Shown: positions 40,186 to 55,619, counted from the stretch's first letter. The stretch is 64,000 bases of DNA from GCF_058153355.1 NZ_CM177019.1, one strand, 5' to 3'. A program made the numbers and translations. The notes: a model not told the origin generated them from the sequence alone.

Positions 40186-40193
40186 TTCGTTCG

Positions 40194-40226
40194 ATCAACG
40201 ATCCTGACATGTACAGGATCGTTGAT
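40194..40226. other. 13-bp perfect inverted repeat (hairpin) at the boundary between ytfE and the accessory operon
   Basis: atcaacgatcctg-acatgta-caggatcgttgat; no flanking T-tract. Confidence 0.4.
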
Positions 40227-40237
40227 TGTTAAGAGGT

Positions 40238-41731: not shown

Positions 41732-41763
41732 AGCATCATCCTGAAGCTGTTAGCGTGAAGAGG

Positions 41764-42921
41764 TTATTTAAATAAGGGTTTAAGACCGCTCGGGGGTTGC
41801 TTCACCGATGACCAACCTCCCTTACCTAAGTTATAACGCAGCCATTCACCTTGTTGGGCGTGCTCTTTCCCAATTCCAGTCGCTTGTTGAGTGTAAAGCT
41901 GCCCGTCTGTTGATATAAACGTGTTAGTTAATCCCCAACTACCACCTGCTTCAAGTGAGTCGGTGAGATCCTCTGGCTTGAGATTAATCAACTCCCCTTC
42001 GCCCAGGGCGTTGGTTGTTACTTTATAAATTTGGTTCTTATATAAACCGGTATTCCGAACAAACAGATAAAAATATTCCGGATCAACTCCCGCCAGCGTT
42101 TCATAAACACAATCACTACCCGCTGGCGTTGCTTCTTGTTTGAGCCAGGACACAGTCTTCAAACCAATATTAAATGACGCACAACTGTGACTAATATCCT
42201 CCAACTTATAGTCATGCTCACCGCTTTTATCGCGATAAACCAACCGTTCGCCAGGCATCCAACGTTTAATCTGAAAAGTTTTGCGATCGGCGGGCAGTGG
42301 CTTGCCATTAACGATCACCTGCGAATTTGTCAGCACAACAAATTGCAGGGCGGAATCATGCCGCACGATTTGAAATCCATCGGCATGACCCAACCAGCGC
42401 CCTTTATGCCAGAGGCCATTTTTATCACGCAGTAAATTCCAGATGTCCGTCTCTTCCAGCGTTGACATATCCACCTGCTTATCACCGCTATTATCATCGG
42501 TACGCTGGCCGTCAAAATAGATACTGCGTTTATCGGCAGCGAAAGCGCCGAATGCCTGAAAACTGGCAGCGTCGACTTTAGGTTTACCGGGGGGATTTTT
42601 CAGGACTTTGCCTGCCCAAATAACAAAGCGTCCATCGGTGAGCCAGGAATGCTGGCAATCCCCCTTATCATCGCAATCGAACTTATCGGGATTAAAATCG
42701 GACAGTAACCGGCAATCTTGCTTATTAGCTAAATTGGCAATGCGCCAGAGGCGGGAAAAATTAACGTCTGGTAATTCGGAGAGGATCTCATCTTCTTTTC
42801 CCTTCTGTTCGGCAACGTAAACCGTGCCTTTATCATGCTGGCGGTAATAAAAATCCGCGCCCCAGGAAGGTAAAATGGAGAGAGGTAATGCGGCGATTAA
42901 TAACCAACTGCGCTTAACCAT
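41764..42921 (-). CDS. Secreted repeat protein, paralogue 2 (DKNYY-like repeats; function unknown)
   Basis: 385-aa product from ATG 42921 with signal peptide MVKRSWLLIAALPLSILPSWGA; shares long identical or similar blocks with paralogue 1 (WLTDGRxxxWAGKxxxNPPGxPKVDAAxFxAxGxFAADKxSxYFDGxRTDDNxGxKQVDM). The ORF-track N-terminal extension (to 43080) overlapping cycA is rejected. Confidence 0.7.
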   Translation of the reverse strand: MVKRSWLLIAALPLSILPSWGADFYYRQHDKGTVYVAEQKGKEDEILSELPDVNFSRLWRIANLANKQDCRLLSDFNPDKFDCDDKGDCQHSWLTDGRFVIWAGKVLKNPPGKPKVDAASFQAFGAFAADKRSIYFDGQRTDDNSGDKQVDMSTLEETDIWNLLRDKNGLWHKGRWLGHADGFQIVRHDSALQFVVLTNSQVIVNGKPLPADRKTFQIKRWMPGERLVYRDKSGEHDYKLEDISHSCASFNIGLKTVSWLKQEATPAGSDCVYETLAGVDPEYFYLFVRNTGLYKNQIYKVTTNALGEGELINLKPEDLTDSLEAGGSWGLTNTFISTDGQLYTQQATGIGKEHAQQGEWLRYNLGKGGWSSVKQPPSGLKPLFK

Positions 42922-43013
42922 AGTGAACTCTGCAACGAGTGGCAAAGATCCACGGTAAGCTCGCGCCTGAGGGCTGTCTATGATGGTAGATTTTTTTAGG
43001 AATATATAAAGAC

Positions 43014-43035
43014 AAAGGCACCCGCAGGTGCCTTT
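43014..43035 (-). terminator. Rho-independent terminator downstream of cycA
   Basis: aaaggcacc-cgca-ggtgccttt stem with flanking T/A tracts, 20 nt after the cycA stop. Confidence 0.55.
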
Positions 43036-43054
43036 CAGAGTTATAAACGCGGCA

Positions 43055-44458
43055 TTACTTCGCCATGCGTTTTTTACCAATAAACAACCAGCCCAACCCC
43101 AGCGCGATAAACCACAGCGGGGTAACTATCAGCGCCTGGCGAGTGTCATCTTCCAGTGTCAGCAGCACGACCACGAACACAAAGAACGCCATACATACCC
43201 AGCACATCAGCTTGCCGAGCGGCATCTTGTAGATAGACTTCTCATGCAGGTGCGGACGCTGTTTGCGATACACCAGGTATGAGCAAAGGATAATCGTCCA
43301 GACGAACATAAACAGAATCGCGGAAACAGTCGTGATCATCGTGAACGCGCCAATTACACTTGGATTCACATACAACATCACCACGCCGCCAAGCAGACAG
43401 ATACAAGAGAAGGTCAGCCCTTTCGCGGGTACGGCGCGCTTAGAAAGTTTAGCGAACGCTTTCGGCGCAACACCTTCCTGGGCCAGACCAAACAGCATAC
43501 GGCTGGTAGAGAAGACGCCGCTGTTAGCGGAAGACGCCGCAGAGGTCAGCACCACAAAGTTGATTACGCTGGCAGCCGCAGGCAAACCCACCAACACAAA
43601 CAATTCAACAAACGGGCTTTTCTCCGGGACTACTGAACTCCACGGCGTCACGGACATAATCACAATCAGCGCGAAGACGTAGAACATAATGATACGGATC
43701 GGAATGGAGTTAATCGCACGTGGCAGTGATTTCTCCGGATCTTTCGTTTCCGCAGCGGTTGTACCGACCAGCTCAATCCCCACGAAAGCGAAAACCGCTA
43801 TCTGGAATCCGGCAAAGAAGCCACTTAAACCTTTCGGGAACCAGCCGCCGTCATTCCACAAATGCGCGAATGACGCTTCCACACCGGTCGGTGACTGAAA
43901 GTGCATCGCCACCATGACCAGGCCGACGACAATCAGTGACACGATGGCGACAATTTTGATCATCGCAAACCAGAACTCCATCTCACCGAACATTTTCACG
44001 GTGGCGAGGTTAAGCGTCAGCAGCAGCACTATCACCGCCAGCGAGGCGACCCAGTCGGAGAGATCGGGGAACCAGAACTGAGCATAGGCAGTGATGGCCA
44101 CCACGTCCGCCATACCGGTAACCACCCAGCAGAACCAGTAGGTCCAGCCAGTGAAATATCCCGCCCATGGCCCCAGTAAATCGGAAGCGAAGTCACTAAA
44201 AGATTTGTATTCCAGATTCGAAAGCAGCAATTCCCCCATTGCCCGCATCACGAAAAAGAGCATAAAACCGATGATCATATAAACGAAGATGATCGACGGT
44301 CCGGCAAGGCTGATTGTTTTACCGGACCCCATAAACAACCCCGTACCAATGGCCCCACCAATGGCAATAAGCTGAATATGTCGGTTTGTGAGATTGCGCC
44401 GTAGCGACTGTTCAGCCGGAGCCTGATCATCGGCAACGACTTTTACCTGATCTACCAT
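43055..44458 (-). CDS. cycA: D-serine/D-alanine/glycine:H+ symporter CycA (APC family)
   Basis: 467-aa product MVDQVKVVADDQAPAEQSLRRNLTNRHIQLIAIGGAIGTGLFMGSG... Confidence 0.95.
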   Translation of the reverse strand: MVDQVKVVADDQAPAEQSLRRNLTNRHIQLIAIGGAIGTGLFMGSGKTISLAGPSIIFVYMIIGFMLFFVMRAMGELLLSNLEYKSFSDFASDLLGPWAGYFTGWTYWFCWVVTGMADVVAITAYAQFWFPDLSDWVASLAVIVLLLTLNLATVKMFGEMEFWFAMIKIVAIVSLIVVGLVMVAMHFQSPTGVEASFAHLWNDGGWFPKGLSGFFAGFQIAVFAFVGIELVGTTAAETKDPEKSLPRAINSIPIRIIMFYVFALIVIMSVTPWSSVVPEKSPFVELFVLVGLPAAASVINFVVLTSAASSANSGVFSTSRMLFGLAQEGVAPKAFAKLSKRAVPAKGLTFSCICLLGGVVMLYVNPSVIGAFTMITTVSAILFMFVWTIILCSYLVYRKQRPHLHEKSIYKMPLGKLMCWVCMAFFVFVVVLLTLEDDTRQALIVTPLWFIALGLGWLFIGKKRMAK

Positions 44459-44766
44459 GTTTTTTTCTTCCTGTACCTGTCTGTGTTGTTCAGGCTCTGC
44501 GGCCTTTAGTCAGTCTATGATACGACGAATCTGTATCGGGACTCATCGATATTAGGTAACAATACGCGGGATGAATACTAAGATTTAGATCTAATGTTAA
44601 TTTTATGTTTAAAGTGAGTGTCATATCACGGTGATAACGCGAAACAGCTCACAAAAATACACGCTTACGTGGTCTTTGCAACACAAAATAGCGCCATTTG
44701 GCAAACTGAAGGGTTTATTGCTGAATGCCTGCTCCCCTCTGGCTCGAGGGGAACAGAATGCGCTGC

Positions 44767-45387
44767 TTAGAGGATTTCCAGCAGTTCGACTTCAAACACC
44801 AGGGTGCTGAACGGAGGGATGGACGCGCCTGCGCCACGCTCGCCATATGCCAGTTCCTGCGGGATAGTCAGTTCCCATTTAGAACCTACCGGCATCAGAG
44901 TCAGTGCTTCAATCCAGCCAGGGATCACGCCGTTAACCGGGAATTCAGCTGGCTCGCCACGGGCAACAGAGCTGTCAAACACAGTGCCGTCGATCAGTTT
45001 ACCGGTGTAATGAACACGAACGCGGTCAGTGCGTGCCGGAATTGCGCCTTCCCCCTGATTGATCACGCGGAATTGCAGGCCAGATTCGGTGCTATTCACA
45101 CCTTCTTTTTTGGCGTTTTCTTCCAGGTATTTCACACCTTCAGCAGCCATCGCCTGGAAACGCTGACGACGAACGGCATCGGCGCGTTCGTGGATTTCAC
45201 GCAGCGCGCGGTGCACCACATCAACCGGAACAGCCGGATGTTTGCCTTCCAGCGCATCGGCAATGCCTGCAACCAGTGCTTCTGGCAGCAGCCCTTCCAG
45301 GCCAGATTCACTCAGTTGTTGCCCTACCTGCAAACCAATGCCGTAGCTTGCTTGCGCTTCGATGGTGTCAAAAGTTGGGGTGGTCAT
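44767..45387 (-). CDS. fklB: FKBP-type peptidyl-prolyl cis-trans isomerase FklB
   Basis: 206-aa product from ATG 45387 ([25 protein letters not shown]...); FKBP domain at the C-terminus. Confidence 0.95.
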
Positions 45388-45604
45388 CGTATTTCCTTTC
45401 TTAGGGTATAAAGTAGCGGGCAGCATATCAGCCACACTTCTTTGGGTAAAACTTTGTCGCGGGAATGATGACAAATCCCGGGGAAAAAGAAACAATAGCA
45501 ATATCCCGTATGAATATAATAAAGGCGGGTTTACCACGGACATCATAGCGTTAGCTTATTCATAGGCTATGATTGAGGAACAAGACGCGGAGCAGGAGGA
45601 AACC

Positions 45605-46243
45605 ATGCCCGGGCGCTTTGAACTAAAACCAACCCTGGAGAAAGTCTGGCACGCGCCGGACAATTTTCGCTTCATGGACCCGCTACCGCCGATGCATCGT
45701 CGGGGGATCATTATTGCCGCTATTGTATTGGTGGTCGGATTTCTACTCCCGTCTGATGATACGCCAAACGCGCCGGTGGTGACGCGTGAAGCACAGTTAG
45801 ATATTCAGTCGCAATCACAACCGCCGACAGAAGAACAGCTGCGGGCGCAATTAGTCACACCACAAAATGATCCTGATCAGGTGGCTCCGGTCGCTCCAGA
45901 ACCGATACAGGAAGGCCAACCGGAAGAGCAGCCGCAAACCTCGCAAGTGCAACCTTTCCAGCCAGATAGCGGAATTGACAATCAATGGCGCTCTTATCGT
46001 GTCGAACCCGGTAAAACAATGGCGCAGCTGTTCCGCGACCACGGACTGCCCGCTACCGATGTCTATGCAATGGCGCAGGTAGAAGGCGCGGATAAGCCAC
46101 TGAGTAATTTGCAAAATGGGCAGATGGTGAAAATCCGCCAGAACGCCAGCGGCGTGGTGACGGGCTTAACCATTGATACGGGAAATAATCAACAGGTCCT
46201 GTTTACCCGCCAGCCGGATGGCAGTTTTATTCGCGCGCGGTAG
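45605..46243 (+). CDS. ytfB: Cell-division protein YtfB (OapA/LysM-like)
   Basis: 212-aa product from ATG 45605 ([42 protein letters not shown]...). Confidence 0.9.
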
Positions 46244-46874
46244 ATGAAGGGTCAACCAGAAGCCAGCTAAGGATCGTCTCTTTGATGACCTTACGCCTGG
46301 CTTCCAGTGCCTGCGGTGAAACCATACTGATGTGATAAACCAGGCCAAGCGTATGTTGGTTGATCAAATAATATCCTCCAAGAGCAGCAATATTAATATT
46401 CACCTGCAACGGGTCGATATCTGGCTTAAAAATATTGCGCCGTTTGCCTTCAGCTAATAATGACTCCATTAACTGTAAGTGTGCGTGGTTAATTTCTAAA
46501 AGGCGCTGTGATTTTGCATAATGCACCCCTTTACTCTGGTTTTCACTATGCACAATTTTTAAAAACCAGGGGTTAGCAATGTAATAATCCCAGGTGAAAT
46601 CGATAATTTTCTCAATGGCTTTTTGTGGCGGAAGACCTGAGAAATCAAGGGATTTTTCTTTTTGCCGAATATCATTCCAGGTATATTCCAGCACTTCGAT
46701 AAATAAATTTTCTTTATTACCAAAGTGATGATAAACCGTCTGTTTACTGCACTCCGCGGCCTTGACGATATTATCGACTCTGGCCCCTTCGTAACCATAT
46801 TCGGCAAATTCATTAACCGCACATAACAACAGCTTTTCCTTCAGGCTTTGTACGTTGCTGGTATCAAGATACAT
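46227..46874 (-). CDS. TetR/AcrR-family transcriptional regulator (divergent from the catabolic operon)
   Basis: N-terminal TetR helix-turn-helix ([44 protein letters not shown]); start placed at ATG 46874 (the ORF track begins at a GTG at 46934). Confidence 0.75.
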
Positions 46875-46996
46875 TCCGCTTCCCCACGTCTTCTTCGTGA
46901 TGACTATCTTAACCCGATTTGTTAGAAGCTCCACTAAAATGGCTAAAAACTCGCAATTTCATCGGGTTATCAAATGCTCTGTGATCATTATCGCAT

Positions 46997-47018
46997 ATCA
47001 ACCAACTAGATGGTTGAT
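46997..47018. promoter_or_regulatory. Perfect 8-bp inverted repeat ATCAACCA-N6-TGGTTGAT in the divergent promoter region (candidate TetR operator)
   Basis: atcaaccaactagatggttgat, between the regulator gene and the first gene of the operon. Confidence 0.4.
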
Positions 47019-47085
47019 CTTTCTTGCCACACATTGCAAGCTAATCGTCACTTAAGGAAATAATATTCAAAAAGAGGGTTATTGT

Positions 47086-47877
47086 ATGAAGTCAACACGT
47101 CCTGTTGCTGTCATCACTGGAGCCGCACGTGGTATTGGAAAGGGCTGTGCACTGGAACTTGCGCGTGGCGGATTTAATCTGCTGATTAATGATCGTCCGG
47201 ATGCCGACAGCGTAGAAAAATTACATGCCACACAACAAGAATGTCTGGCGGAAGGCGTGGAAGTCATTTGCTTCCCTGCCGATGTCGGCGATCTCTCCTT
47301 GCATGAAGAGATGCTCGACGCGGCGCAAAACCAGTGGGGGCGTCTGGACTGCCTGCTCAATAACGCCGGGATTTCAGTGAAAAAACGCGGTGACCTCCTC
47401 GACCTCGAACCAGACAGCTTCGACCAAAACATTGCCATTAACACCCGTGCGCCGTTCTTCCTTGCTCAGGCATTCAGTAAGCGATTACTGGCACAGCCGA
47501 AACCGGAAGCAGAACTGCCGCACCGCTCGATTATTTTTGTCAGTTCCATAAACGCCATCATGCTGGCGATGAATCGCGGCGAATATACCATTGCCAAAAC
47601 TGCCGTCTCCGCCGCAGCTCGCCTGTTTGCCGCTCGCCTTTGCAATGAACAAATTGGCGTTTATGAAGTGCGCCCTGGCCTAATCAAAACCGATATGACC
47701 ATTCCGGCAACGGCTTATTACGACGAACTGATTGCTAAGGGGTTAGTGCCGTGGGGACGTTGGGGTTATCCGGCTGATATTGCCTCAACGGTCCGCGCGA
47801 TGGCGGAAGGCAAACTGATTTACACCTGTGGTCAGGCGGTCGCCATCGACGGCGGCTTAAGTATGCCGCGCTTCTGA
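47086..47877 (+). CDS. Short-chain dehydrogenase/reductase (SDR) family oxidoreductase
   Basis: 263 aa; TGAARGIGKG cofactor motif, NNAG, catalytic YTIAK; RBS AGAGGG. Confidence 0.85.
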   Translation: MKSTRPVAVITGAARGIGKGCALELARGGFNLLINDRPDADSVEKLHATQQECLAEGVEVICFPADVGDLSLHEEMLDAAQNQWGRLDCLLNNAGISVKKRGDLLDLEPDSFDQNIAINTRAPFFLAQAFSKRLLAQPKPEAELPHRSIIFVSSINAIMLAMNRGEYTIAKTAVSAAARLFAARLCNEQIGVYEVRPGLIKTDMTIPATAYYDELIAKGLVPWGRWGYPADIASTVRAMAEGKLIYTCGQAVAIDGGLSMPRF

Positions 47878-47886
47878 GGCTGAATC

Positions 47887-48729
47887 ATGAGAGATCTGTT
47901 ACAACGCCCGGATTTATTCAGTATCAATACTGCGACACTGGGCTATAAAACACCGCTACCTGCCATTATTGATGCCTGCGCCGCACGCGGTATTGGCGCG
48001 ATTGCCCCCTGGCGCAGGGAGTTACAGGGTGAAGATCTCCAACAAATCGCCCGCCAGCTTGCTGCCAGTAACATGAGCGTTTCCGGTTTGTGCCGTAGCA
48101 CCTATTACACCGCGCCGACGCTGACGGAACGCAAACTGGCGATTGATGATAACCGCCGGGCGCTGGACGACGCCGCTGTACTGAACGCCGCCTGTTATAT
48201 GCAGGTGGTTGGCGGTCTGCCAATGGGAACAAAAGATCTGTACGAAGCGCGGGAACAGGTGAAACAAGGGATTCGCCAGTTGCTGCCACATTCGAAAGAT
48301 GTCGGCGTACCAATTGCGCTGGAGCCGCTACACCCGATGACCGCCGCCGATCGCTCTTGCCTGTGCACGTTACGTCAGGCGCTGGACTGGTGTGATGAAC
48401 TCGATCCCGATGGGGAGTTTGGCCTCGGCGTGGCGGTGGATGTTTATCACGTCTGGTGGGACCCGGATCTCGCCAGTCAGATCCTGCGTGCCGGAAAGCG
48501 CATCCTCGCGTTTCATGTTTCCGACTGGCTGGTGCCAACCACCGATTTAGTCAATGACCGGGGAATGCCGGGAGATGGCGTAATCAATATTCCGTCTATT
48601 CGTCGCCAGGTAGAAAATGCCGGATTTAACGGTGCTATTGAACTGGAAATATTCTCACCGTACTGGTGGCAAAAAGATATTAACAGCACACTGGATATTA
48701 GCGTCGATCGCATCGCGCATTATTGCTAA
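47887..48729 (+). CDS. Sugar-phosphate isomerase/epimerase-like TIM-barrel protein (xylose-isomerase-like fold)
   Basis: 280 aa; pattern typical of the AP-endonuclease-2/xylose-isomerase-like TIM-barrel family (family-level call only). Confidence 0.7.
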   Translation: MRDLLQRPDLFSINTATLGYKTPLPAIIDACAARGIGAIAPWRRELQGEDLQQIARQLAASNMSVSGLCRSTYYTAPTLTERKLAIDDNRRALDDAAVLNAACYMQVVGGLPMGTKDLYEAREQVKQGIRQLLPHSKDVGVPIALEPLHPMTAADRSCLCTLRQALDWCDELDPDGEFGLGVAVDVYHVWWDPDLASQILRAGKRILAFHVSDWLVPTTDLVNDRGMPGDGVINIPSIRRQVENAGFNGAIELEIFSPYWWQKDINSTLDISVDRIAHYC

Positions 48730-48732
48730 GGA

Positions 48733-49515
48733 ATGATCATGAGTGACCAACCCGTTCTGTTCAGCAGAGCGGCGGCTTCCTGCCGCCTGACATTGAACCG
48801 TGAAGATAAATGTCATGCTATTAATGAAGAAATGATCGAATCTCTCGACCATTATTTAAATGAAATTGAAAACGACACCACATTACGATTAGTCGAATTA
48901 ACGGCAACCGGCGATAAATTCTTTTGTGCAGGCGGCGATATTAAATCGTGGTCAGCCTATTCGCCATTAGATATGGGCAGAAAATGGATTAAACGCGGCA
49001 ATGACGTTTTTAATCGCCTGCGCAACTTACCCCAATTAACCGTTGCGAATCTCAACGGTCATACCATCGGCGGCGGTATTGAACTTGCCTTGTGCTGTGA
49101 TATTCGTATTGCCCGCCCCGGCGCGAAATTCTCTAACCCGGAAGTGATGCTCGGCATGGTACCTGGCTGGATGGGCATTGAACGCGTGCTTAATCAGGTC
49201 GGTCCGGTGGTCGGTCGCCAGATGCTGATGCTGGGTAAACGCCTGACGGCGCAGGAAGCTCAGGCGGCGAATTTAATTGATGAAGTGGTAGAAAAAGAAC
49301 AGGTGGAAAGCTGGATGGCGAATCAGTTAGCGCAACTGGAAAAATGTGGTCCGGTAGCGCTGGCACATATTAAGCAACTGATTCTGGCGCTGGAAAATAA
49401 ACACGCCGATTACCCGCACCAGTTACTGGCTGGATTAATGTCCGCCACTCAGGATTGCCAGCAGGCGACGCGCGCATTTGCCGAAAAAGCCAGCGTGAGC
49501 TTCCATAATCAATAA
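48733..49515 (+). CDS. Enoyl-CoA hydratase/isomerase (crotonase) family protein
   Basis: 260 aa; crotonase signature region FFCAGGDIKSW ... NGHTIGGGIELALCCDIRIA. Confidence 0.85.
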   Translation: MIMSDQPVLFSRAAASCRLTLNREDKCHAINEEMIESLDHYLNEIENDTTLRLVELTATGDKFFCAGGDIKSWSAYSPLDMGRKWIKRGNDVFNRLRNLPQLTVANLNGHTIGGGIELALCCDIRIARPGAKFSNPEVMLGMVPGWMGIERVLNQVGPVVGRQMLMLGKRLTAQEAQAANLIDEVVEKEQVESWMANQLAQLEKCGPVALAHIKQLILALENKHADYPHQLLAGLMSATQDCQQATRAFAEKASVSFHNQ

Positions 49516-49524
49516 GGAAATTGT

Positions 49525-51066
49525 ATGCGTAAGATAACAACCGCCGAGACACTGGCGGCGCAAATTCAGGACGGCGCAACCATTGCCATTAGCGGTAATG
49601 GCGGTGGCATGGTGGAAGCGGACCATATTCTGGCTGCTATTGAAGCGCGTTTCCTGCAAACCGGACACCCGCGCGATCTGACATTAATCCACTCACTGGG
49701 CATTGGCGATCGCGACTGCAAAGGCACTAACCGCTTCGCTCATGCAGATATGCTCAAACGCATCATTGCCGGACATTTTACCTGGTCGCCCAAGATGCAG
49801 GATCTGGTGAAAAACAATGCTATTGAAGCCTACTGCTTCCCTGGTGGCGTAATTCAGGCACTGCTGCGGGAGATCGGTGCCGGACGTCCAGGGCTTTTTA
49901 CCCACGTTGGGCTGGGATCGTTTGTTGATCCGCGCAACGGCGGCGGTAAGTCGAACGCCAGCACCACTGAGGATCTGGTAGAACTGATTGAAATCGACGG
50001 TGAAACCAAACTTCGTTATCGCCCTTTCAAAGTGGACTACGCGATTTTGCGTGGCACTTATGCCGATCCGCGTGGCAACGTCAGCCTCGAAGAAGAGGCG
50101 ATTGATATGGATAGCTATTCCATGGCGCTGGCAGCACACAACAGCGGCGGCAAAGTGTTCGTACAGGTGCGCGATGTGCTGGAAGCTGGTGCCATTGAAC
50201 CACGCCGGGTCAAATTACCGGGCATTCTGGTTGATGGCATCGTTGAACACCGCGAACAACCGCAAACCTATCTTGGCGGTTACGACCTGACCATCAGCGG
50301 TCAGCATCGCCGTCTAAGTTCTAACGACGCTATTGAACTGGTTAGTCATCCGGTGCGCCGCCTGATTGCCCGTCGGGCAGCACGCGAACTGGTGGCTGGC
50401 GCTTCAACCAACTTTGGCTTTGGTATTCCGGGCGGTATTCCAGGAGTAGCGCTGCGCGAAGGCGTGCCTTATCAAAGTTTATGGCTGAGCGTAGAACAGG
50501 GCGTACATAACGGCATGATGCTGGATGATGCTCTGTTCGGCTGCGCCCGTAACGCCGATGCCATTATTCCATCACTCGATCAATTCGAATTCTACAGTGG
50601 CGGAGGGATCGATATCACCTTCCTCGGCATGGGAGAGATGGATCAGTACGGTAACGTCAACGTCTCCCATCTCAATGGCAATCTCATTGGCCCCGGCGGA
50701 TTTCTCGAAATTGCGCAAAACGCCCGTAAAGTGGTGTTCTGCGGCACGTTCGACGCCAAAGGTAGCAAGATTGATGTAACACCAGATGGCTTGCATATTG
50801 CCCAGTCAGGTCAAATCCCTAAACTGGTTACCCAGGTGGAAAAAATCACTTTTAGCGCCGCCTACGCACAGCAAAGCGGTCAGGAAGTGTTGTATATCAC
50901 TGAACGTGCAATATTCCAGTTAACGGCAGAAGGCGTTGAATTAATTGAAATCGCACCAGGTGTGGAGATTGAGCGCGACATTCTGCCATATATGGCTTTC
51001 CGTCCAATTATCAATCAGCCACGCCTGATGGAAAGTAGCCTGTTTACGCCGATGGAGGATGCATGA
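49525..51066 (+). CDS. Fused alpha/beta family-I CoA-transferase (acyl-CoA:acetate/3-ketoacid CoA-transferase-like)
   Basis: 513 aa; resembles fused short-chain acyl-CoA transferases (YdiF type); stop overlaps the next start (ATGA). Confidence 0.75.
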   Translation: MRKITTAETLAAQIQDGATIAISGNGGGMVEADHILAAIEARFLQTGHPRDLTLIHSLGIGDRDCKGTNRFAHADMLKRIIAGHFTWSPKMQDLVKNNAIEAYCFPGGVIQALLREIGAGRPGLFTHVGLGSFVDPRNGGGKSNASTTEDLVELIEIDGETKLRYRPFKVDYAILRGTYADPRGNVSLEEEAIDMDSYSMALAAHNSGGKVFVQVRDVLEAGAIEPRRVKLPGILVDGIVEHREQPQTYLGGYDLTISGQHRRLSSNDAIELVSHPVRRLIARRAARELVAGASTNFGFGIPGGIPGVALREGVPYQSLWLSVEQGVHNGMMLDDALFGCARNADAIIPSLDQFEFYSGGGIDITFLGMGEMDQYGNVNVSHLNGNLIGPGGFLEIAQNARKVVFCGTFDAKGSKIDVTPDGLHIAQSGQIPKLVTQVEKITFSAAYAQQSGQEVLYITERAIFQLTAEGVELIEIAPGVEIERDILPYMAFRPIINQPRLMESSLFTPMEDA

Positions 51067-53135
51067 GTCAGCTTGATGACACCCTCCTTGATGCGCTGAC
51101 GCACGTCACTTTCCCGAAGGGTTTTGTGTCAGCAGAGCCAGCGTCAATTGTCACGGTTGAAGATGTCGATTACCCGATCTGGCAAGTTGATGCGCTAGTC
51201 GTTGGTAGCGGCGCGGCAGGGCTGCGCGCAGCGGTTGAACTTAAGCGCCGCCAGCAAAATGTGCTGATCGCCTCCGCCGGGTTATATATGGGGACATCGG
51301 CATGTTCTGGTTCCGATAAACAGACGCTGTTTACCGCCGCTACCGCGGGCAACGGCGATAACTTCGCCAAACTGGCGGAAGCACTGGCGAGCGGTGGGGC
51401 GATGGATCACGACACCGCTTATGTCGAAGCGGTAGGTTCTCTGCACACTCTTGGCGGGTTGCAATATCTTGGTCTGGAATTACCGGAAGATCGCTATGGC
51501 GCAATTCTTCGTTATCAAACCGACCATGACGAAGCCGGGCGAGCAACCTCGTGTGGGCCGCGTACTTCTCGCCTAATGGTGAAAGTATTGCTGGAGGAAG
51601 TGCAGCGTCTTGCCATACCACTACTGACCAGTGCAACGGTGATTAAGCTCCTGCATCAGCACGGAGAGAATGGCGAAGATCGCGTTGCGGGGGCTATTCT
51701 CGCAACCGGTTCCCGCGCCTATAACCCCTGGGGGCTGGCTATTGTGACGGCGCCCAATGTGGTACTGGCAACGGGCGGACCGGGCGAGCTTTATCGCGAC
51801 AGTGTTTATCCACATAAATGCTTCGGCTCGCTGGGACTGGCACTGGAAGAAGGTTTGACGCTAACCAATCTGACCGAAAGCCAGTTTGGTATAGGCACGC
51901 CGCGCAGCACGTTTCCGTGGAATTTGTCCGGCACCTATGTACAGGTGATCCCATATATCTATTCCGTGGATGCCGGGGGCAACGAGTATAACTTCCTCGC
52001 AGATTACTATCGCACCACCCAGGAGCTGGCTTCAAACATCTTCCGTAAAGGCTATCAGTGGCCGTTTCACGCCACACGAGTGATGGATTTTGGCTCCAGC
52101 TTGTTAGATATGGCAGTAGCGCAAGAGCAGCAATCAGGACGTCAGGTATTTATGGATTTCAATCGCAATCCTGAACCTGTGCCGGGTGACCTGCCGTTCT
52201 CATTAGATCGACTGGACGACGACGTTCGCGCGTATCTGGAAAATAACGACGCTCTGGCACCATCGCCCATCGAACGACTGCAACGAATGAATCCGCTGTC
52301 TATCTCGCTGTATAAGATGCACGGTTACGATCTCACCACGCAGCCATTGCAGTTTGCCATGAATAATCAGCATATAAATGGCGGCATTGAAGTGGATATC
52401 TGGGGGCAAACCTCCCTGCCCGGATGTTTCGCCGTGGGGGAAGTTGCTGGCACACACGGCGTCACTCGCCCTGGTGGTGCGGCATTGAATGCCGGGCAGG
52501 TTTTTGCTGTTCGTCTGGCACGTTTTATTGGTTGCACGCAAAAACGTAATATTGATGGAGATATAGCACAGCTGGTAGCTCCGGCACTGGCTTCTATAAG
52601 AGAGATCATTACTCAGGCGCACGATAACGGGACCGGGATGCCGTTGTCGGTTGTGAGGGAAAAAATTCAGGCACGAATGTCTGACTACGCGGGATTTATT
52701 TGCCATGCCGATAAAGTCCGACGCGCCACTCGTGATGCCCTGCTATTGAACGAATTTGTGCAACGGCATGGATTGGCAATCAAACATGTGGGTGAAGTTG
52801 CCGAGCTATTTATGTGGCGGCATATGGCGCTGACTTCTGCCGCGGTATTAACACAATTAACGCATTATATTGATGCTGGTGGTGGTAGCCGTGGGGCGCG
52901 TATGGTTATTGATCCACAAGGCAAATGCCTACCACAAACTCGTCGCGGCGCAAAAGAAGAATGGCGTTTTCGCTCTGAACTCGCTGAAGACAAAAATCAC
53001 AAATTAACAATTCAATATTCGCAAGGTTCTTTTATTACCGAAGTAAAGTCTTTACGTATGCAACCGTGTATTAACGGTATTTACTTTGAAAAAAACTGGC
53101 CAGACTTTTTAAAGGGAGACATTTACACACAGTAA
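51063..53135 (+). CDS. FAD-dependent oxidoreductase (fumarate-reductase/succinate-dehydrogenase flavoprotein-like superfamily)
   Basis: 690 aa; N-terminal dinucleotide-binding motif DALVVGSGAAGLRAAVEL and a second glycine-rich region (VLATGGPGELY). Confidence 0.75.
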   Translation: MSQLDDTLLDALTHVTFPKGFVSAEPASIVTVEDVDYPIWQVDALVVGSGAAGLRAAVELKRRQQNVLIASAGLYMGTSACSGSDKQTLFTAATAGNGDNFAKLAEALASGGAMDHDTAYVEAVGSLHTLGGLQYLGLELPEDRYGAILRYQTDHDEAGRATSCGPRTSRLMVKVLLEEVQRLAIPLLTSATVIKLLHQHGENGEDRVAGAILATGSRAYNPWGLAIVTAPNVVLATGGPGELYRDSVYPHKCFGSLGLALEEGLTLTNLTESQFGIGTPRSTFPWNLSGTYVQVIPYIYSVDAGGNEYNFLADYYRTTQELASNIFRKGYQWPFHATRVMDFGSSLLDMAVAQEQQSGRQVFMDFNRNPEPVPGDLPFSLDRLDDDVRAYLENNDALAPSPIERLQRMNPLSISLYKMHGYDLTTQPLQFAMNNQHINGGIEVDIWGQTSLPGCFAVGEVAGTHGVTRPGGAALNAGQVFAVRLARFIGCTQKRNIDGDIAQLVAPALASIREIITQAHDNGTGMPLSVVREKIQARMSDYAGFICHADKVRRATRDALLLNEFVQRHGLAIKHVGEVAELFMWRHMALTSAAVLTQLTHYIDAGGGSRGARMVIDPQGKCLPQTRRGAKEEWRFRSELAEDKNHKLTIQYSQGSFITEVKSLRMQPCINGIYFEKNWPDFLKGDIYTQ

Positions 53136-53227
53136 TTTTCAATATTTACTCTGTACCTGATTTTTATTGCCTATTACATGGAAATACCAACAACCAGGGT
53201 TTATTAATATAATTAAAAGGTTTAAAA

Positions 53228-54505
53228 ATGAATAAAATAAAGAATTATCGATGGCATATGATTGCCCTCGTATGCTTTATCACTGTAATCAATTATCTGG
53301 ACAGAACGGCGTTAGGTATTGCGGCTCCAACGATTATGGAGACAACCGGAATAACCAAAGAACAATATTCATGGATTGTCAGTGCATTCCAGTTGGCCTA
53401 TACATTGGGGCAACCGGTAATGGGCTTCTTTATTGATACCGTGGGTCTGAAGTTAAGTTTTGCGATATGTGCCGCAATCTGGGGCCTGGCGACAATGGGG
53501 CATGCCTTGACAGGAACATGGTCAGGTCTGGCATTTATGCGCGCCCTGATGGGTTTCAGCGAAGCATCGGCAATTCCTGCGGGTGTAAAAACCGCATCAA
53601 CATGGTTCCCGGCAAAAGAGCGTGGCGTGGCGACAGGTGTTTTCAATATGGGCACCTCACTCGGCGCGATGCTTGCTCCACCGTTGATTGCCTGGTGCAT
53701 TATGTTTCATAGCTGGCAATTTGCGTTTATTGTCTCAGGTAGCCTTGCTTTACTCGCGGCTTTATTTTGGTTCTTTTGTTATAAAGATCCAAAAGATGCT
53801 AAACGCCTTTCTGATGAAGAGCGCCACTATATTGAGTCTGGGCAAGAACAGCATCTTAAAACAGATAAGAAAGAAAAAACGTCAATCAAGCATATCCTCA
53901 GCCAACGTAATTTCTGGGGGATTGGCATCGCGCGTTTTCTCGCTGACCCGGCATGGGGAACCATTAACTTCTGGGTACCGATTTTCTTCGTCGAAACGCT
54001 GCATTTTAGCCTGAAAGAAATTGCCATGTTCGTCTGGCTGCCTTTCCTGCTGGGCGATCTCGGCTGTTTAGCCAGTGGTTTTGTCGCGAAGTTCTTCCAC
54101 GATCGCGGCGTGAGTTTAATTAACTCACGAAGAATTACCTTCACTATTGCAGCCGTCATTATGATGACGATTGGTCTGGTGAGTATTGTCGAAAATCCCT
54201 ACATCGCCGTATTACTGATTAGCATTGGCGCATTCTCGCATCAATGTCTTTCTACTGTAGCAGCAACTCTGGGCGGTGACCTATTCAAAAAAGACGAAGT
54301 AGCTACCGCAGTGGGTATGGCAGGAGCCTGTGCGTGGAGCGGTCAGTTGATTTTCAACCTGTTCATCGGGGCATTCGTTCACATTATCGGCTTCGCGCCG
54401 TTCTTTATTGCCCTGGCTTTCTTTGACATTATTGGTGCTATTGCGTTGTGGACGCTTATCAAAGTTAAAGATGAAGAACCACAAGTACAGTTAGCTACCC
54501 ACTAA
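53228..54505 (+). CDS. MFS transporter, anion:cation symporter (ACS) family, ExuT-like (hexuronate / sugar-acid type)
   Basis: 425 aa, about 12 TM helices; N-terminus (MNKIKNYRWHMIALVCFITVINYLDRTALGIAAPTIME...WFPAKERGVATGVFNMGTSLGAMLAPPLIAW) closely parallels hexuronate-transporter family proteins. Confidence 0.8.
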   Translation: MNKIKNYRWHMIALVCFITVINYLDRTALGIAAPTIMETTGITKEQYSWIVSAFQLAYTLGQPVMGFFIDTVGLKLSFAICAAIWGLATMGHALTGTWSGLAFMRALMGFSEASAIPAGVKTASTWFPAKERGVATGVFNMGTSLGAMLAPPLIAWCIMFHSWQFAFIVSGSLALLAALFWFFCYKDPKDAKRLSDEERHYIESGQEQHLKTDKKEKTSIKHILSQRNFWGIGIARFLADPAWGTINFWVPIFFVETLHFSLKEIAMFVWLPFLLGDLGCLASGFVAKFFHDRGVSLINSRRITFTIAAVIMMTIGLVSIVENPYIAVLLISIGAFSHQCLSTVAATLGGDLFKKDEVATAVGMAGACAWSGQLIFNLFIGAFVHIIGFAPFFIALAFFDIIGAIALWTLIKVKDEEPQVQLATH

Positions 54506-54520
54506 TTATTTTAAATAAAA

Positions 54521-54549
54521 ACGCTATAATTGAGGTTATGGCGTTTTTA
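54521..54549 (+). terminator. Rho-independent terminator after the MFS transporter gene
   Basis: acgctataa-ttgagg-ttatggcgt stem followed by ttttt. Confidence 0.5.
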
Positions 54550-54774
54550 AAGAAGCTTGAGTTATCGAACCTCGCTTACCAACGCGTTGTCAGTCATCTC
54601 CCCCCTCCCTGGTGCATCGTTATATCCGTGATGAGCGATTTTTGATATTAATATCTTTCACCATCCGCTATTTTCACCACTTCAGAAAACAAACTTATTT
54701 TTATTAATATCAATTCTTTTTCTTTGAACATTCAACTGCGATATTTGTAAAAATATTAAACAGGCAACAATAAA

Positions 54775-55569
54775 ATGACATTACCAACAACTATTTATTC
54801 ATTCCCCGCATATTTACCTCGTTTTTCGTCCACCGACAAACCAGCAAAACTAAAATTTCATCAATACGCACGCGCTACATTACTGTCAAATCGTGGAAGA
54901 GATCATAATTGCGATGGCAGACGTACTGTTGAGATCCACAAACTAGATCTCTCAGACTGGCAAGCATTCAATAAGCTAGCGACGAGGTGTAATACTTACG
55001 ATGGAATAACAATGAATGGTGATAATTCTTTTGGATGGAACCATGAAGCTACATTAGATAATATTCACGCCCAGAAATACAATAAAGCTTACGCGGGTGC
55101 GCGGTTAACCGCAGAACTGAAATATTTATTGCAAGATGTCGAATCCTTCGAACCCAACAGTAAATACACAATACACGAAGTGGTTTTGGGACCTGGTTAT
55201 GGTACTCCAGACTATACCGGCCAAACGATAGGATACGTTGTAACCCTTCCTGCCCAAATGCCTAATTGCTGGTCATCTGAACTACCAACAATCGATCTTT
55301 ATATCGACCAACTTCGCACTGTTACAGGCGTTTCTAATGCCCTCGGATTCATCATTGCTGCATTGCTAAACGCGTATTCTGATTTACCCCATGATTTGAA
55401 AATTGGTCTACGTTCCTTATCAAATTCAGCCGCAATCTACTCGGGTTTAGGTTTCGAGCGAGTGCCGCAGGACCGAGACATAAGGAGTGATCGTATGCAT
55501 CTAACGCCAGCAAACCATCCTGACTTATGGACACAAGAGAATGGTGAATGGATCTACTTGCGAAATTAA
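54775..55569 (+). CDS. yjfZ: Hypothetical protein YjfZ (function unknown)
   Basis: 264-aa ORF with ATG start, preceded by a very AT-rich 270-bp region; no recognisable catalytic motif. Confidence 0.8.
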   Translation: MTLPTTIYSFPAYLPRFSSTDKPAKLKFHQYARATLLSNRGRDHNCDGRRTVEIHKLDLSDWQAFNKLATRCNTYDGITMNGDNSFGWNHEATLDNIHAQKYNKAYAGARLTAELKYLLQDVESFEPNSKYTIHEVVLGPGYGTPDYTGQTIGYVVTLPAQMPNCWSSELPTIDLYIDQLRTVTGVSNALGFIIAALLNAYSDLPHDLKIGLRSLSNSAAIYSGLGFERVPQDRDIRSDRMHLTPANHPDLWTQENGEWIYLRN

Positions 55570-55591
55570 TGCCTGACGAAAAATAGAAAGC

Positions 55592-55619
55592 AAAACGCCG
55601 ACCAATGGTCGGCGTTTTT
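55592..55619. terminator. Bidirectional rho-independent terminator (yjfZ on plus strand; rpsF-priB-rpsR-rplI operon on minus strand)
   Basis: aaaa-acgccgacc-aat-ggtcggcgt-ttttt. Confidence 0.65.

Follow-up and report, generated by a model that had tools for sequence, protein, structure and literature searches.

Seven genes lying between ytfB and yjfZ in Escherichia coli (46227-54549 of the window, i.e. of the whole 64,000-nt stretch that was analysed) probably serve the catabolism of a glucuronate-like sugar acid, along a route that has not been described. Our preferred reading, to which we give a probability of about 0.45, is that of an operon for the use of an imported, hexuronate-like sugar acid as carbon source, under TetR and CRP control and following a uronate-to-KDG-type route. 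A hexuronate-like substrate is proposed because three different transporters accompany the enzymes, namely two ExuT-like MFS transporters and a TRAP system related to uronate-binding proteins; this class is read from transporter similarities of only 40-47%, a distance at which specificity can change. Sugar-acid catabolism, already suggested in an earlier note on this DNA, is the best-supported substrate class. That note knew of no characterised pathway with this gene set, and none was found in the literature with gene names, accessions, PDB codes and keywords covering the genes, proteins, structures, Sinorhizobium meliloti locus tags and DUF993.

The locus comprises a TetR gene on the minus strand and, across a divergent control region, six close-packed genes on the plus strand, which encode an SDR, a xylose-isomerase-fold TIM barrel, a crotonase, a YdiF-type CoA-transferase, a FrdA/NadB-fold flavoprotein and an ExuT-like MFS transporter (Table 1). 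Distances between the plus-strand genes are of 3-9 nt, the CoA-transferase stop and the flavoprotein start overlap by 4 nt, and the only wide gap (92 nt, AT-rich) lies upstream of the MFS gene. All genes are full length against their orthologues. A strong hairpin with a U run closes the operon (folding: -15.6 kcal/mol, z = -4.75, 0/200 shuffles equally stable); it was not called by a terminator consensus scan. The gene layout, the terminator and the flanking genes ytfB and yjfZ are as the earlier note had described them, and its six protein-family calls are all correct.

Table 1. Features of the locus (window coordinates)
Feature	Position	Strand	Length (aa)	Basis or remark
TetR-family regulator	46227..46934	-	235	longest ORF, from GTG
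Candidate CRP-like site TGTGATCATTATCGCA	46980..46995	+		one mismatch to TGTGA-N6-TCACA
Candidate TetR operator, inverted repeat ATCAACCA-N6-TGGTTGAT	46997..47018	+		divergent control region
Classical SDR	47086..47877	+	263	NCBIfam PRK12745, SDR motifs
Xylose-isomerase-fold (AP_endonuc_2) TIM barrel	47887..48729	+	280	PDB matches, PF01261 in orthologues
Crotonase-family enoyl-CoA hydratase	48733..49515	+	260	RefSeq start equivalent to 48739
Fused family-I CoA-transferase, YdiF/Pct type	49525..51066	+	513	YdiF similarity, PDB 2AHU
FrdA/SdhA/NadB-fold flavoprotein	51063..53135	+	690	FAD_binding_2 PF00890, residues 43-475
Right-hand recombination boundary and 92-nt spacer (37% GC)	52904..53227	.		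DNA homology with TRAP form ends
ExuT-like anion:cation-symporter-family MFS transporter	53228..54505	+	425	ExuT identity, TIGR00893
Intrinsic-terminator-like hairpin and U run	54516..54549	+		ends operon
yjfZ (DUF2686)	54775..55569	+		no NCBIfam match

The regulator shows weak N-terminal HTH matches to many TetR models (residues about 28-100), and its orthologues contain PF00440 and PF17938. Its true start is likely the ATG at 46874, giving 215 aa; the RefSeq annotation of a 98%-identical strain has the same length and the equivalent ATG. The HTH, the C-terminal ligand domain of the orthologues and a palindrome in the divergent promoter, as candidate operator, are those of a TetR-family repressor. 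This palindrome, noticed earlier as perfect, is real: its 8-nt arms are perfect (10/11 when taken as 11-nt arms), it is the single match in the window, where 0.26 would be expected by chance even at 3 mismatches, and its core (AACCAAC..G.TTGA) is kept in five genera while the rest of the spacer has diverged. The CRP-like sequence has one match in the window, which is not above chance (1.5 expected); its columns GTGAT...TC(A/G)CA are kept in Escherichia, Klebsiella, Salmonella, Sodalis and Brenneria, and the Brenneria site matches the consensus perfectly. The conserved palindrome is probably where the TetR repressor would control the operon, with CRP probably acting at the conserved site adjoining it.

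The only curated cut-off that an enzyme of the operon exceeds is that of an uninformative SDR model (PRK12745, 420 bits vs a cut-off of 250); all named equivalogs otherwise stay out of reach. The SDR displays the motifs of a classical SDR, i.e. TGxxxGxG (ITGAARGIGKG), NNAG and YxxxK (YTIAK). It stays below the equivalog cut-offs of KduD (117 vs 339) and FabG (126 vs 298), is no more similar to KduD than to FabG, and has as nearest solved structures 4DA9 (1e-56) and 4ONE, whose names carry no specific function. The TIM-barrel enzyme belongs to the AP_endonuc_2 family, as its orthologues contain PF01261, and is closest to PDB 3JU2/3QC0 (S. meliloti SMc04130, function unknown; E = 1e-85) and 7VPF (1e-60). 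Its matches to the IolO, FrlC and Hyi models are of only 25-28 bits vs cut-offs of 300-353, its match to IolI is only at 8e-6, and family models detect no similarity to dehydroshikimate dehydratases or IolE.

The crotonase carries both Glu motifs expected of its family (GGGIELALCCD and FSNPEVMLG), which we take to be catalytic by way of rat ECH E144/E164. It scores 130-150 bits with ECH models, under their equivalog cut-offs; the top NCBIfam model is a short-chain enoyl-CoA hydratase (151 bits, below cut-off) and the best solved match is the 3-hydroxypropionyl-CoA dehydratase 5ZAI (3.5e-40). The CoA-transferase shares 39% identity over 508 aa with K-12 YdiF (PDB 2AHU, 6e-115) and reaches 382 bits with the FadX model (cut-off 750). 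As in family-I transferases, a Glu is present: Glu324 aligns with YdiF Glu333, presumably the catalytic residue. In K-12, ydiF, the closest K-12 paralogue of the transferase, adjoins aroD and the quinate/shikimate dehydrogenase gene ydiB. Together the two enzymes look like a short-chain module, because their nearest relatives are 3-hydroxypropionyl-CoA dehydratase for the crotonase and YdiF for the transferase, and because the acyl-CoA dehydrogenases of related clusters come closest to acryloyl-CoA reductase.

The flavoprotein is a member of a large family that is still uncharacterised: 413 cluster representatives match at E <= 1e-30, and a scan of 100,044 species-representative genomes gave at least 599 genomic matches. 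The protein has neither a signal peptide nor an Fe-S partner gene. Its AlphaFold model (pLDDT 90.7) is best matched in Foldseek by FrdA, SdhA, NadB and AprA, at 14-19% identity (E = 7e-32). The positions of FrdA H232, R287, H355 and R390 are occupied by Gly276, Ser345, Gln436 and Arg469, which are invariant in 27/27 family members; Arg469, equivalent to FrdA R390 and NadB R386, is thus the only one of the four retained, and Gly77, likewise invariant across the 27, stands at the position of the covalent-FAD His44. With three of the four substrate and catalytic residues replaced, the identities of fumarate reductase, succinate dehydrogenase and L-aspartate oxidase were provisionally rejected. 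The capping domain aligns at about 18% identity, which makes the residue comparison indicative, not final, of an enzyme other than the standard fumarate-reductase or aspartate-oxidase type. Because these residues are lost, 'succinate-dehydrogenase-like chemistry' is to be taken as an analogy.

In E. coli, the operon occurs in two forms, with an ExuT-like MFS or with a TRAP transporter. Along its full length, the MFS protein of the window has 47% identity with K-12 ExuT, in agreement with the earlier ExuT-like assignment, and it scores 315 bits with TIGR00893. Klebsiella and Salmonella have another MFS in this place, only 51% identical to that of the window and likewise 47% identical to ExuT. 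In the TRAP form, DctQ, DctM and DctP genes are followed by rplI, without yjfZ; the binding protein is most similar to 4OVR, 4X8R and 4N8Y (E = 1e-67 to 1e-71), of which 4X8R bound glucuronate and 4N8Y galacturonate (PMC11668362). DNA homology between the two forms stops at 52903, and the right end alone (MFS and yjfZ vs TRAP) looks to have been exchanged. As far as can be told, yjfZ lies outside the pathway, but it accompanies the MFS right-end cassette and is missing in TRAP-form strains.

The operon is present in about 3100/5426 complete E. coli genomes (about 57%), with ST131 and an O2:K1 avian pathogen among them, as well as in E. albertii (at the same site) and E. marmotae. Klebsiella and Salmonella have it in synteny, flanked by ytfB and rplI, and there the orthologues of the window ORFs are 77-94% identical except for the swapped MFS. 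K-12 retains at this site a truncated TetR pseudogene ('ytfA', the 3' part of TetR; window 46000-46629 kept) and a 102-bp SDR fossil. The K-12 cluster is not intact, in line with the earlier note, which named only a short TetR-like remnant (ytfA) there; K-12 is a deletion derivative at this locus. Loss has been repeated (K-12, O157), and in some TRAP-form strains the TIM and transferase genes are broken. No integrase or IS was found among the ORFs; GC is 0.45-0.59 in the enzyme genes vs about 0.49-0.53 in the flanks. A horizontally acquired island was rejected in view of the lack of mobility genes, the identical site and order in Klebsiella and Salmonella, and the deletion scars of K-12; 'variable island', as the earlier note called it, is a misleading label for the intact operon.

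The neighbourhoods of related genes reveal a modular operon, made of an SDR, TIM and flavoprotein core and of a CoA-transferase and crotonase add-on. In Brenneria, TetR-SDR-TIM-flavoprotein is encoded without CoA genes and together with a PcaK-like aromatic-acid transporter; Pseudescherichia, Phytobacter and Mangrovibacter have the same core plus a Gfo/Idh/MocA dehydrogenase; and Lentisphaeria and Opitutia encode the core enzymes with Gfo/Idh/MocA and no TetR gene nearby. A Rhodocyclaceae genome has SDR-TIM-crotonase-transferase-flavoprotein in identical order, with TRAP and TetR genes, its flavoprotein falling on a separate branch of the flavoprotein tree. Among 79 loci of the flavoprotein family, the neighbours include SDRs (29), KdgK-like kinases (16), levoglucosan-dehydrogenase-like Gfo/Idh/MocA proteins (16), Old-yellow-enzyme or enoate-reductase-like proteins (13) and Eda-like aldolases (11); the KdgK/Eda linkage concerns flavoprotein relatives 36-56% identical, not the enterobacterial operon itself. 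Furthermore, a secreted BNR_4 propeller is encoded at Phycisphaerae loci, a sugar-type ABC importer is paired with the flavoprotein in alpha-proteobacteria, and an inositol-dehydrogenase-like Gfo/Idh/MocA enzyme occurs in type C clusters. Other related clusters add a MaoC hydratase, an acyl-CoA dehydrogenase and ETF; these dehydrogenases are nearest to the acryloyl-CoA reductase AcrC and also resemble cyclohexanecarboxyl-CoA dehydrogenase, and one such locus (L017) retains the flavoprotein as well.

This modularity bears on the earlier proposal that the enzymes form one beta-oxidation-like module. Transferase, flavoprotein, crotonase and SDR, closely packed and in part overlapping, could act as a single cycle on the CoA ester of a hydroxy/oxo acid, to which the TIM-barrel enzyme would contribute a side step; both crotonase Glu motifs and the transferase Glu aligned with that of YdiF are in place, and MaoC, acyl-CoA dehydrogenase and ETF join related clusters. 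Such a cycle is nevertheless unlikely, and the one-module claim does not fit the comparative genomics: the core recurs without any CoA enzyme, KdgK-like and Eda-like genes adjoin flavoprotein relatives, and L017 keeps the flavoprotein beside an acyl-CoA dehydrogenase with ETF. To our knowledge, no FrdA-fold enzyme acts on CoA esters. Thiolase is absent from every version, and in the operon neither the ORFs nor family models gave the thiolase and acyl-CoA dehydrogenase by which beta-oxidation would be recognised. Somewhat less likely still is a C3-acid branch (3-oxopropionate to 3-oxopropionyl-CoA, 3-hydroxypropionyl-CoA and acryloyl-CoA), in which transferase, SDR and crotonase would work as in the 3-oxopropionate route of Anaerostipes and the flavoprotein as an enoate or enoyl reductase, disposing of the C3 fragment of a sugar acid or using free 3-hydroxypropionate, acrylate or malonate semialdehyde. 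Such a role is described (PMC8355322) for a single operon that encodes a Pct-type transferase together with an enoyl-CoA hydratase and a dehydrogenase. The best solved relative of the crotonase, the AcrC-like dehydrogenases of related clusters and a faint hydroxypyruvate-isomerase match of the TIM enzyme would fit, but the operon lacks an aldolase or other C-C cleaving enzyme, C3 acids have no need of hexuronate-type transporters, SDR and flavoprotein are conserved in CoA-free settings, and every match is far under its family cut-off.

The PcaK-like transporter of Brenneria, the inositol-dehydrogenase-like enzyme of type C clusters, the inosose isomerases of the TIM family (IolI match), the resemblance of related dehydrogenases to cyclohexanecarboxyl-CoA dehydrogenase and the proximity of ydiF to ydiB and aroD would suit a carbocyclic polyhydroxy acid or cyclitol derivative (quinate- or shikimate-like, or an inositol-derived acid), broken down by way of a ketone, desaturation of the ring, dehydration and steps that depend on CoA. 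We consider this improbable, since the enterobacterial locus has three hexuronate-type transporters, the KdgK-like/Eda-like linkage points towards linear sugar acids, and the TIM enzyme bears no detectable likeness to dehydroshikimate dehydratases or IolE. That the locus is a decaying remnant devoid of present function in this genome is very improbable: losses and broken genes are seen in other strains, whereas here seven ORFs are full length with well-conserved enterobacterial counterparts (the MFS less so), the regulatory motifs are conserved and over half of the E. coli genomes have kept the operon. The hexuronate-like reading has its own difficulties. On paper, the conversion of hexuronate to KDG requires neither a flavoprotein nor CoA, E. 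coli already possesses UxaC/UxuAB and KduID, and the PcaK-like and sugar-type ABC pairings of the core or flavoprotein do not suit it.

For the hexuronate-like sugar acid, a hypothetical order of steps, on an equally hypothetical exact substrate, would be as follows: (i) the acid is imported by the ExuT-like MFS, or by the TRAP system in other strains, (ii) the flavoprotein carries out a redox step on the C-alpha/C-beta bond beside the carboxylate (C5-C4 of a uronate), (iii) the CoA-transferase activates the same carboxylate, (iv) the crotonase performs a hydration or beta-elimination across the same bond, as the thioester, (v) the keto acid so formed is isomerised (aldose-ketose) or epimerised by the TIM-barrel enzyme, with the SDR reducing a carbonyl, after the logic of KduI/KduD, and (vi) a 2-keto-3-deoxygluconate-type product is passed to KdgK and Eda, encoded elsewhere. 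Candidate substrates could be a lyase-derived 4,5-unsaturated uronate or its open-chain form, 4-O-substituted uronates, and uronates beyond the reach of UxaC. The more specific idea of a CoA-dependent uronic-acid-type degradation, with a new subfamily of FrdA-fold flavoenzymes acting at the carboxylate-adjacent bond and the CoA-transferase and crotonase hydrating the sugar acid itself, or catalysing an elimination on it, with the help of the thioester, feeding KDG/Entner-Doudoroff, is tentative and on the doubtful side. If sugar acids are handled as CoA thioesters, this would be new pathway chemistry, and the operon may scavenge lyase-derived unsaturated or 4-O-substituted uronates set free by other degraders of gut or plant biomass. 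The operon is common in E. coli, the best-annotated organism, and it lacks a substrate assignment because it is deleted in K-12, the reference strain. Its solution would close a gap both in the metabolic models of individual strains and in the picture of gut nutrient niches, and the K-12 natural knockouts and two transporter forms make the question directly testable.

Among known systems, the E. coli hexuronate system (ExuT, UxaC, UxuAB/UxaAB, KduI/KduD, KdgK, Eda) is approached through the MFS, the glucuronate/galacturonate-binding group of the TRAP-form protein and the KdgK-like and Eda-like genes near flavoprotein relatives, and the isomerase-fold enzyme and SDR mirror KduI and KduD; it differs in that no operon enzyme is homologous to UxaC, UxuA/B or KduI. 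We know of no counterpart of the flavoprotein, CoA-transferase and crotonase in described hexuronate routes. The cai carnitine operon of E. coli, which encodes CaiT, CaiB (a family-III transferase), CaiD and CaiA (an acyl-CoA dehydrogenase), similarly combines a transporter, a CoA-transferase, a crotonase dehydrating a beta-hydroxyacyl-CoA and a flavoprotein acting on a C-alpha=C-beta bond. The present operon has instead a family-I transferase and a FrdA-fold flavoprotein, cai lacks an SDR and a TIM barrel, and its substrate is a betaine, in contrast to the apparent sugar acid here. The 3-oxopropionate branch of Anaerostipes inositol fermentation (OxcT, EcdH and a dehydrogenase; PMC8355322) likewise unites a Pct/YdiF-type CoA-transferase and an enoyl-CoA hydratase in one operon for a short oxo/hydroxy acid from a sugar-like substrate, OxcT being likened to our transferase by description, not by sequence; its acyl-CoA dehydrogenase/ETF reductase and IolC/IolJ kinase and aldolase steps are absent from the operon. 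With the FrdA/SdhA/NadB superfamily, the flavoprotein has in common the fold, the FAD_binding_2 domain and the R390-equivalent Arg, and it differs by Gly, Gly, Gln and Ser in place of the FAD His, the two substrate His and the catalytic Arg, by its low identity, by its length of 690 aa and by the lack of an Fe-S partner; its study would yield a first function for this large FrdA-fold family. Finally, the TIM enzyme and SDR match those of S. meliloti SMc04130-type clusters (3JU2/3QC0, 4DA9, 4DNH; we take 4DA9 and 4DNH to be S. meliloti proteins), which, like K-12 ydiF, have no assigned function and which carry an acyl-CoA dehydrogenase and DUF993 where the operon has the FrdA-fold flavoprotein. 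In other proteobacteria, too, the SDR-TIM pair is found together with CoA-transferase, acyl-CoA dehydrogenase and DUF993, and solving the operon would give a function to the orphan structural-genomics entries 3JU2/3QC0, 4DA9, 4DNH and 3OQB.

The operon bordered by ytfB on one side and by yjfZ-rplI on the other is probably a sugar-acid catabolic operon (probability about 0.65). The ORF listing and family scans agree with the gene content described in the earlier note, namely a TetR-family regulator gene facing six genes on the opposite strand (see table). The intergenic gaps in the operon are 3-9 nt, the ORFs of the CoA-transferase and the flavoprotein share 4 nt, and the gene of the major facilitator superfamily (MFS) transporter is preceded by a 92-nt spacer with 37% GC. 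In a bovine E. coli with 98% identity, RefSeq starts the TetR gene at the ATG equivalent to 46874. The protein families, the integrity of the operon, its regulatory motifs, its ancestry, its modularity, the relationships of its transporters, and the KdgK-like and Eda-like neighbours of the flavoprotein family are shown directly, and the catabolic role is inferred.

Features of the operon, its control elements and a nearby gene pair (window positions)
Feature	Position	Strand	Basis or remark
Paralogous gene between ytfE and cycA	40238-41731	minus	RefSeq: hypothetical protein
Paralogous gene between ytfE and cycA	41764-43080	minus	RefSeq: hypothetical protein
TetR-family gene, longest ORF	46227-46934	minus	ORF listing and family scan
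CRP-like candidate site TGTGATCATTATCGCA	46980-46995		directly upstream of the palindrome; conserved in spacer alignment
Palindrome ATCAACCA-N6-TGGTTGAT, candidate TetR operator	46997-47018		divergent control region; sole match in window
SDR	47086-47877	plus	ORF listing and family scan
AP_endonuc_2 / xylose-isomerase-fold TIM barrel	47887-48729	plus	ORF listing and family scan
Crotonase	48733-49515	plus	ORF listing and family scan
Fused family-I CoA-transferase	49525-51066	plus	ORF listing and family scan
FAD_binding_2 flavoprotein, 690 aa	51063-53135	plus	ORF listing and family scan
MFS transporter	53228-54505	plus	ORF listing and family scan
Terminator hairpin followed by U run	54516-54549		closes the operon; folding -15.6 kcal/mol, z = -4.75

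The palindrome and the closing terminator proposed earlier were both recovered, the former as a single occurrence in the window and the latter by hairpin folding together with its U run; a simple consensus terminator scan did not call this hairpin. The divergent spacer of the window was aligned with those of two further E. coli and of Klebsiella, Salmonella, Sodalis and Brenneria; the core of the palindrome is kept while the rest of the spacer has diverged. The adjoining CRP-like site matches the CRP consensus with one mismatch in the window and perfectly in Brenneria; as such a match is no more than chance when scored within the window alone, the candidate site draws its support from conservation across genera. 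A conserved candidate TetR operator next to a likewise conserved CRP-type site is what would be expected of a substrate-induced, catabolite-controlled carbon-source operon. No promoter is proposed, since the consensus promoter scan listed none in the divergent control region.

Two forms of the operon occur in E. coli. Of 5426 complete genomes, 1659 carry the MFS form, with a match over 80% or more of window 46000-54800, and another 1445 carry a form with a TRAP transporter, so that the enzyme genes are present in about 57% of the genomes. In the TRAP form, DNA homology to the window ends at 52903, within the 3' end of the flavoprotein gene, and DctQ, DctM and DctP are followed directly by rplI, without yjfZ (comparison locus L010, 11842-15000); the right end of the MFS form (window 52904-55600) encodes the ExuT-like transporter and yjfZ. 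In some TRAP-form E. coli/Shigella lineages the TIM-barrel gene is shortened (207 aa) and the CoA-transferase is split (151 + 339 aa; comparison locus L092, 9001-11960), a sign that the operon is still decaying in some branches of the species. The remaining genomes, including K-12 and O157-type strains, have kept a truncated TetR pseudogene. This remnant is interrupted, in O157-type strains and in some others, by an IS200/IS605-family element encoding tnpA and an InsQ/TnpB RNA-guided endonuclease, annotated in some records as IS609.

K-12 keeps window 46000-46629, then a 102-bp SDR fossil (82% identity; window 47175-47276, K-12 locus L002:3135-3236), flanked by the truncated TetR pseudogene and by DNA upstream of yjfZ, and resumes at 54607. 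These segments imply descent of K-12 from the MFS form by deletion, and the fossil implies that window 46630-47174 and 47277-54606 were lost in two deletions, starting from an intact MFS-form operon. The same seven genes are encoded in the same order between ytfB and rplI in Klebsiella oxytoca/grimontii and in some Salmonella enterica, and the flavoprotein is also present in E. albertii and E. marmotae. The ORF listing contains no mobility genes in the operon, and its composition is ordinary except for the TetR gene and the right end. The operon is, judged from these genome comparisons, an old and often-lost locus; an acquired island is ruled out by the Klebsiella/Salmonella synteny and by the K-12 deletion scars. 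The TetR remnant that the earlier note attributed to K-12 is therefore real, but its "island" is syntenic in other genera and devoid of mobility genes.

The window itself looks like DNA of a divergent Escherichia lineage and not of typical E. coli, as its cycA-fklB-ytfE flanking DNA (window 40000-45500) is only about 96% identical to that of most E. coli, its operon shares 93-94% identity with the majority of E. coli copies, and the best match, at 98%, is one bovine strain. A match over 80% or more of window 40000-45500 was seen in only 270 of the 5426 genomes. This flank includes the two paralogous genes of the table, whose products (497 aa and about 400 aa) have hydrophobic N-termini and are probably secreted.

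The strongest clue to the substrate class is given by the transporters. Indeed, (i) the window MFS protein shares 47% identity with K-12 ExuT along its full length, (ii) the MFS protein at the same position in Salmonella/Klebsiella is also 47% identical to ExuT and only 51% identical to that of the window, the enzymes being 77-94% identical, and (iii) the TRAP-form binding protein, in whose alignments YD(G/S)GARSFY is among the conserved stretches, has 4OVR, 4X8R and 4N8Y as its closest PDB entries (E = 1e-67 to 1e-71), of which 4X8R has glucuronate and 4N8Y galacturonate as ligand (PMC11668362). Three independent recruitments of uronate-type importers point to a hexuronate-like acid, although specificity may differ at 40-47% identity.

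Apart from an uninformative SDR model, no operon protein reached the cut-off of a curated NCBIfam model. The SDR has the classical motifs, and the only cut-off reached is that of an automatically named model. The TIM barrel scores 25-28 bits to IolO, FrlC and hydroxypyruvate isomerase, far under the cut-offs, and is read as a putative keto-sugar isomerase or epimerase type without a specific name. The crotonase has both catalytic glutamate motifs, and its closest solved relative is 3-hydroxypropionyl-CoA dehydratase. The CoA-transferase is 39% identical to YdiF, its Glu324 aligning with YdiF Glu333, the catalytic residue. ydiF is its closest K-12 relative (comparison locus L097, K-12 1772512-1778347); it directly follows ydiN (MFS), ydiB (quinate/shikimate dehydrogenase) and aroD and is itself followed by ydiO (acyl-CoA dehydrogenase), a further case, likewise unexplained, of a polyhydroxy-acid theme alongside CoA enzymes. 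The CoA module looks short-chain, as the acyl-CoA dehydrogenases of related clusters are nearest to acryloyl-CoA reductase and then to cyclohexanecarboxyl-CoA dehydrogenase.

The flavoprotein (model pLDDT 90.7) has the FrdA/SdhA/NadB/AprA fold at 14-19% identity, and structure search returned only distant FrdA/SdhA matches and no functional clue. When the family was aligned with FrdA and NadB, invariant Gly, Gly, Ser and Gln were found at FrdA His44, His232, Arg287 and His355, and the Arg equivalent to FrdA R390 was the sole compared position to be kept; the capping-domain alignment is of low identity and the comparison is indicative. As these catalytic positions are replaced, the protein is taken to be something other than a fumarate reductase or an aspartate oxidase. 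FAD binding is probably non-covalent, and a single carboxylate may be bound. The flavoprotein has no signal peptide, and neither an Fe-S nor an ETF partner gene is found in the operon. A flavodoxin encoded after the operon MFS gene of Sodalis ligni (comparison locus L093, 15638-16087) is a possible redox partner of the flavoprotein, which is otherwise without a partner gene.

The flavoprotein family is large, with 413 cluster representatives at E <= 1e-30, and a scan with an alignment of 27 members as query, using one genome per species, found at least 599 genomic stretches encoding a relative. All neighbouring ORFs of 80 loci were clustered. In brief, the layouts include: layout A (Rhodobacteraceae, Rhizobiales), with a sugar ABC importer, a pair of GMC oxidoreductases, LacI, a Gfo/Idh/MocA protein resembling levoglucosan dehydrogenase, the flavoprotein and a KdgK-like kinase that scores 270 bits against the KDG-kinase model, locus L031 additionally encoding an Eda-like aldolase; layout B (Phycisphaerae), with an enoate-reductase-like old-yellow-enzyme fusion, an SDR, an Eda-like aldolase, a secreted BNR_4 propeller, the flavoprotein and a KdgK-like kinase; layout C (Pseudescherichia, Phytobacter, Mangrovibacter), with TetR, SDR, a Gfo/Idh/MocA dehydrogenase that matches the orphan structure 3OQB at E = 3e-183, TIM barrel, MFS and flavoprotein; a TetR-SDR-TIM-flavoprotein-MFS layout in Brenneria; and layout D, that of the window and also of Sodalis ligni, in which crotonase and CoA-transferase are inserted into the core between TIM barrel and flavoprotein. 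The SDR, Gfo/Idh/MocA, TIM and flavoprotein set is also present in Lentisphaeria, in Opitutia and in a beta-proteobacterial MAG, with a nearby TetR gene only in the MAG.

The four CoA-related and redox enzymes had earlier been read as a single beta-oxidation-like module. This stays a rival reading but is rejected as the best model, since comparative genomics finds the core and the CoA pair to be modular across layouts. A Rhodocyclaceae genome has the layout D gene order with TRAP genes and an extra MaoC hydratase, and another beta-proteobacterium encodes transferase, crotonase, TRAP, MaoC, acyl-CoA dehydrogenase, ETF, TIM barrel and flavoprotein. The flavoprotein tree places the enterobacterial layout D clade and the CoA-containing loci of beta-proteobacteria in separate branches, so the CoA pair was either added to the core repeatedly or travelled with it. 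The pattern argues for a functional link between CoA pair and core, but not for a single four-enzyme beta-oxidation module. Elsewhere the SDR-TIM pair occurs without the flavoprotein, with CoA-transferase, acyl-CoA dehydrogenase and DUF993. One such conserved cluster type (comparison loci L098:8062-10846 and L099:5161-10852) joins a member of this TIM-barrel family to TetR, CoA-transferase, a short-chain acyl-CoA dehydrogenase, SDR and DUF993, with ETF and ETF-QO genes near the L098 cluster. Structure matches were 4DNH for DUF993 (E = 1e-147), 4DA9 for the SDR and 3JU2/3QC0 for the TIM barrel, none with a function-specific name; no literature was found on DUF993. Another rival reading is a C3 branch like the 3-oxopropionate route of Anaerostipes (PMC8355322). 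A third has a carbocyclic acid as substrate, for example quinate or shikimate, and there are hints of it: Brenneria pairs the same enzyme core with a PcaK-like aromatic-acid carrier, a caveat to the hexuronate reading, related loci have an inositol-dehydrogenase-like partner, and K-12 ydiF adjoins ydiB-aroD.

That the sugar acid is hexuronate-like is the best explanation offered, held at slightly under even odds, and any particular order of steps is less probable again. In the proposed model all five activities would act on one molecule: the flavoprotein would carry out redox chemistry at C-alpha/C-beta adjoining the carboxylate, the CoA-transferase would activate that same carboxylate, the crotonase would hydrate or eliminate over the same bond in the thioester, the TIM enzyme would isomerise at the carbonyl end, and the SDR would reduce a carbonyl to yield a KDG-type product for KdgK and Eda, encoded elsewhere. 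Because the flavoprotein-family neighbourhoods gather several enoate/enoyl-processing kinds (FrdA-fold flavoproteins, old-yellow-enzyme-type reductases, crotonase and MaoC hydratases, acyl-CoA dehydrogenases), an alpha,beta-unsaturated or beta-substituted acid is suggested as intermediate, with a lyase-derived 4,5-unsaturated uronate as an obvious candidate. Chemistry alone allows several self-consistent schemes (iduronate epimerisation, 4-O-methylglucuronate demethylation, unsaturated-uronate reduction, an aldonate 2-/3-keto route) and gives no basis for choice.

In summary, the operon is of interest as it is widespread in E. coli, missing from K-12, tied to several orphan structures and directly testable. 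Literature searches gave no description of the operon or of the flavoprotein family, in keeping with the earlier remark that no characterised pathway has this gene set. What is undescribed is the way the genes are combined, the subfamily of the flavoprotein and the chemistry that this would imply; each part falls in a known superfamily, and a regulated catabolic operon is an ordinary kind of unit.
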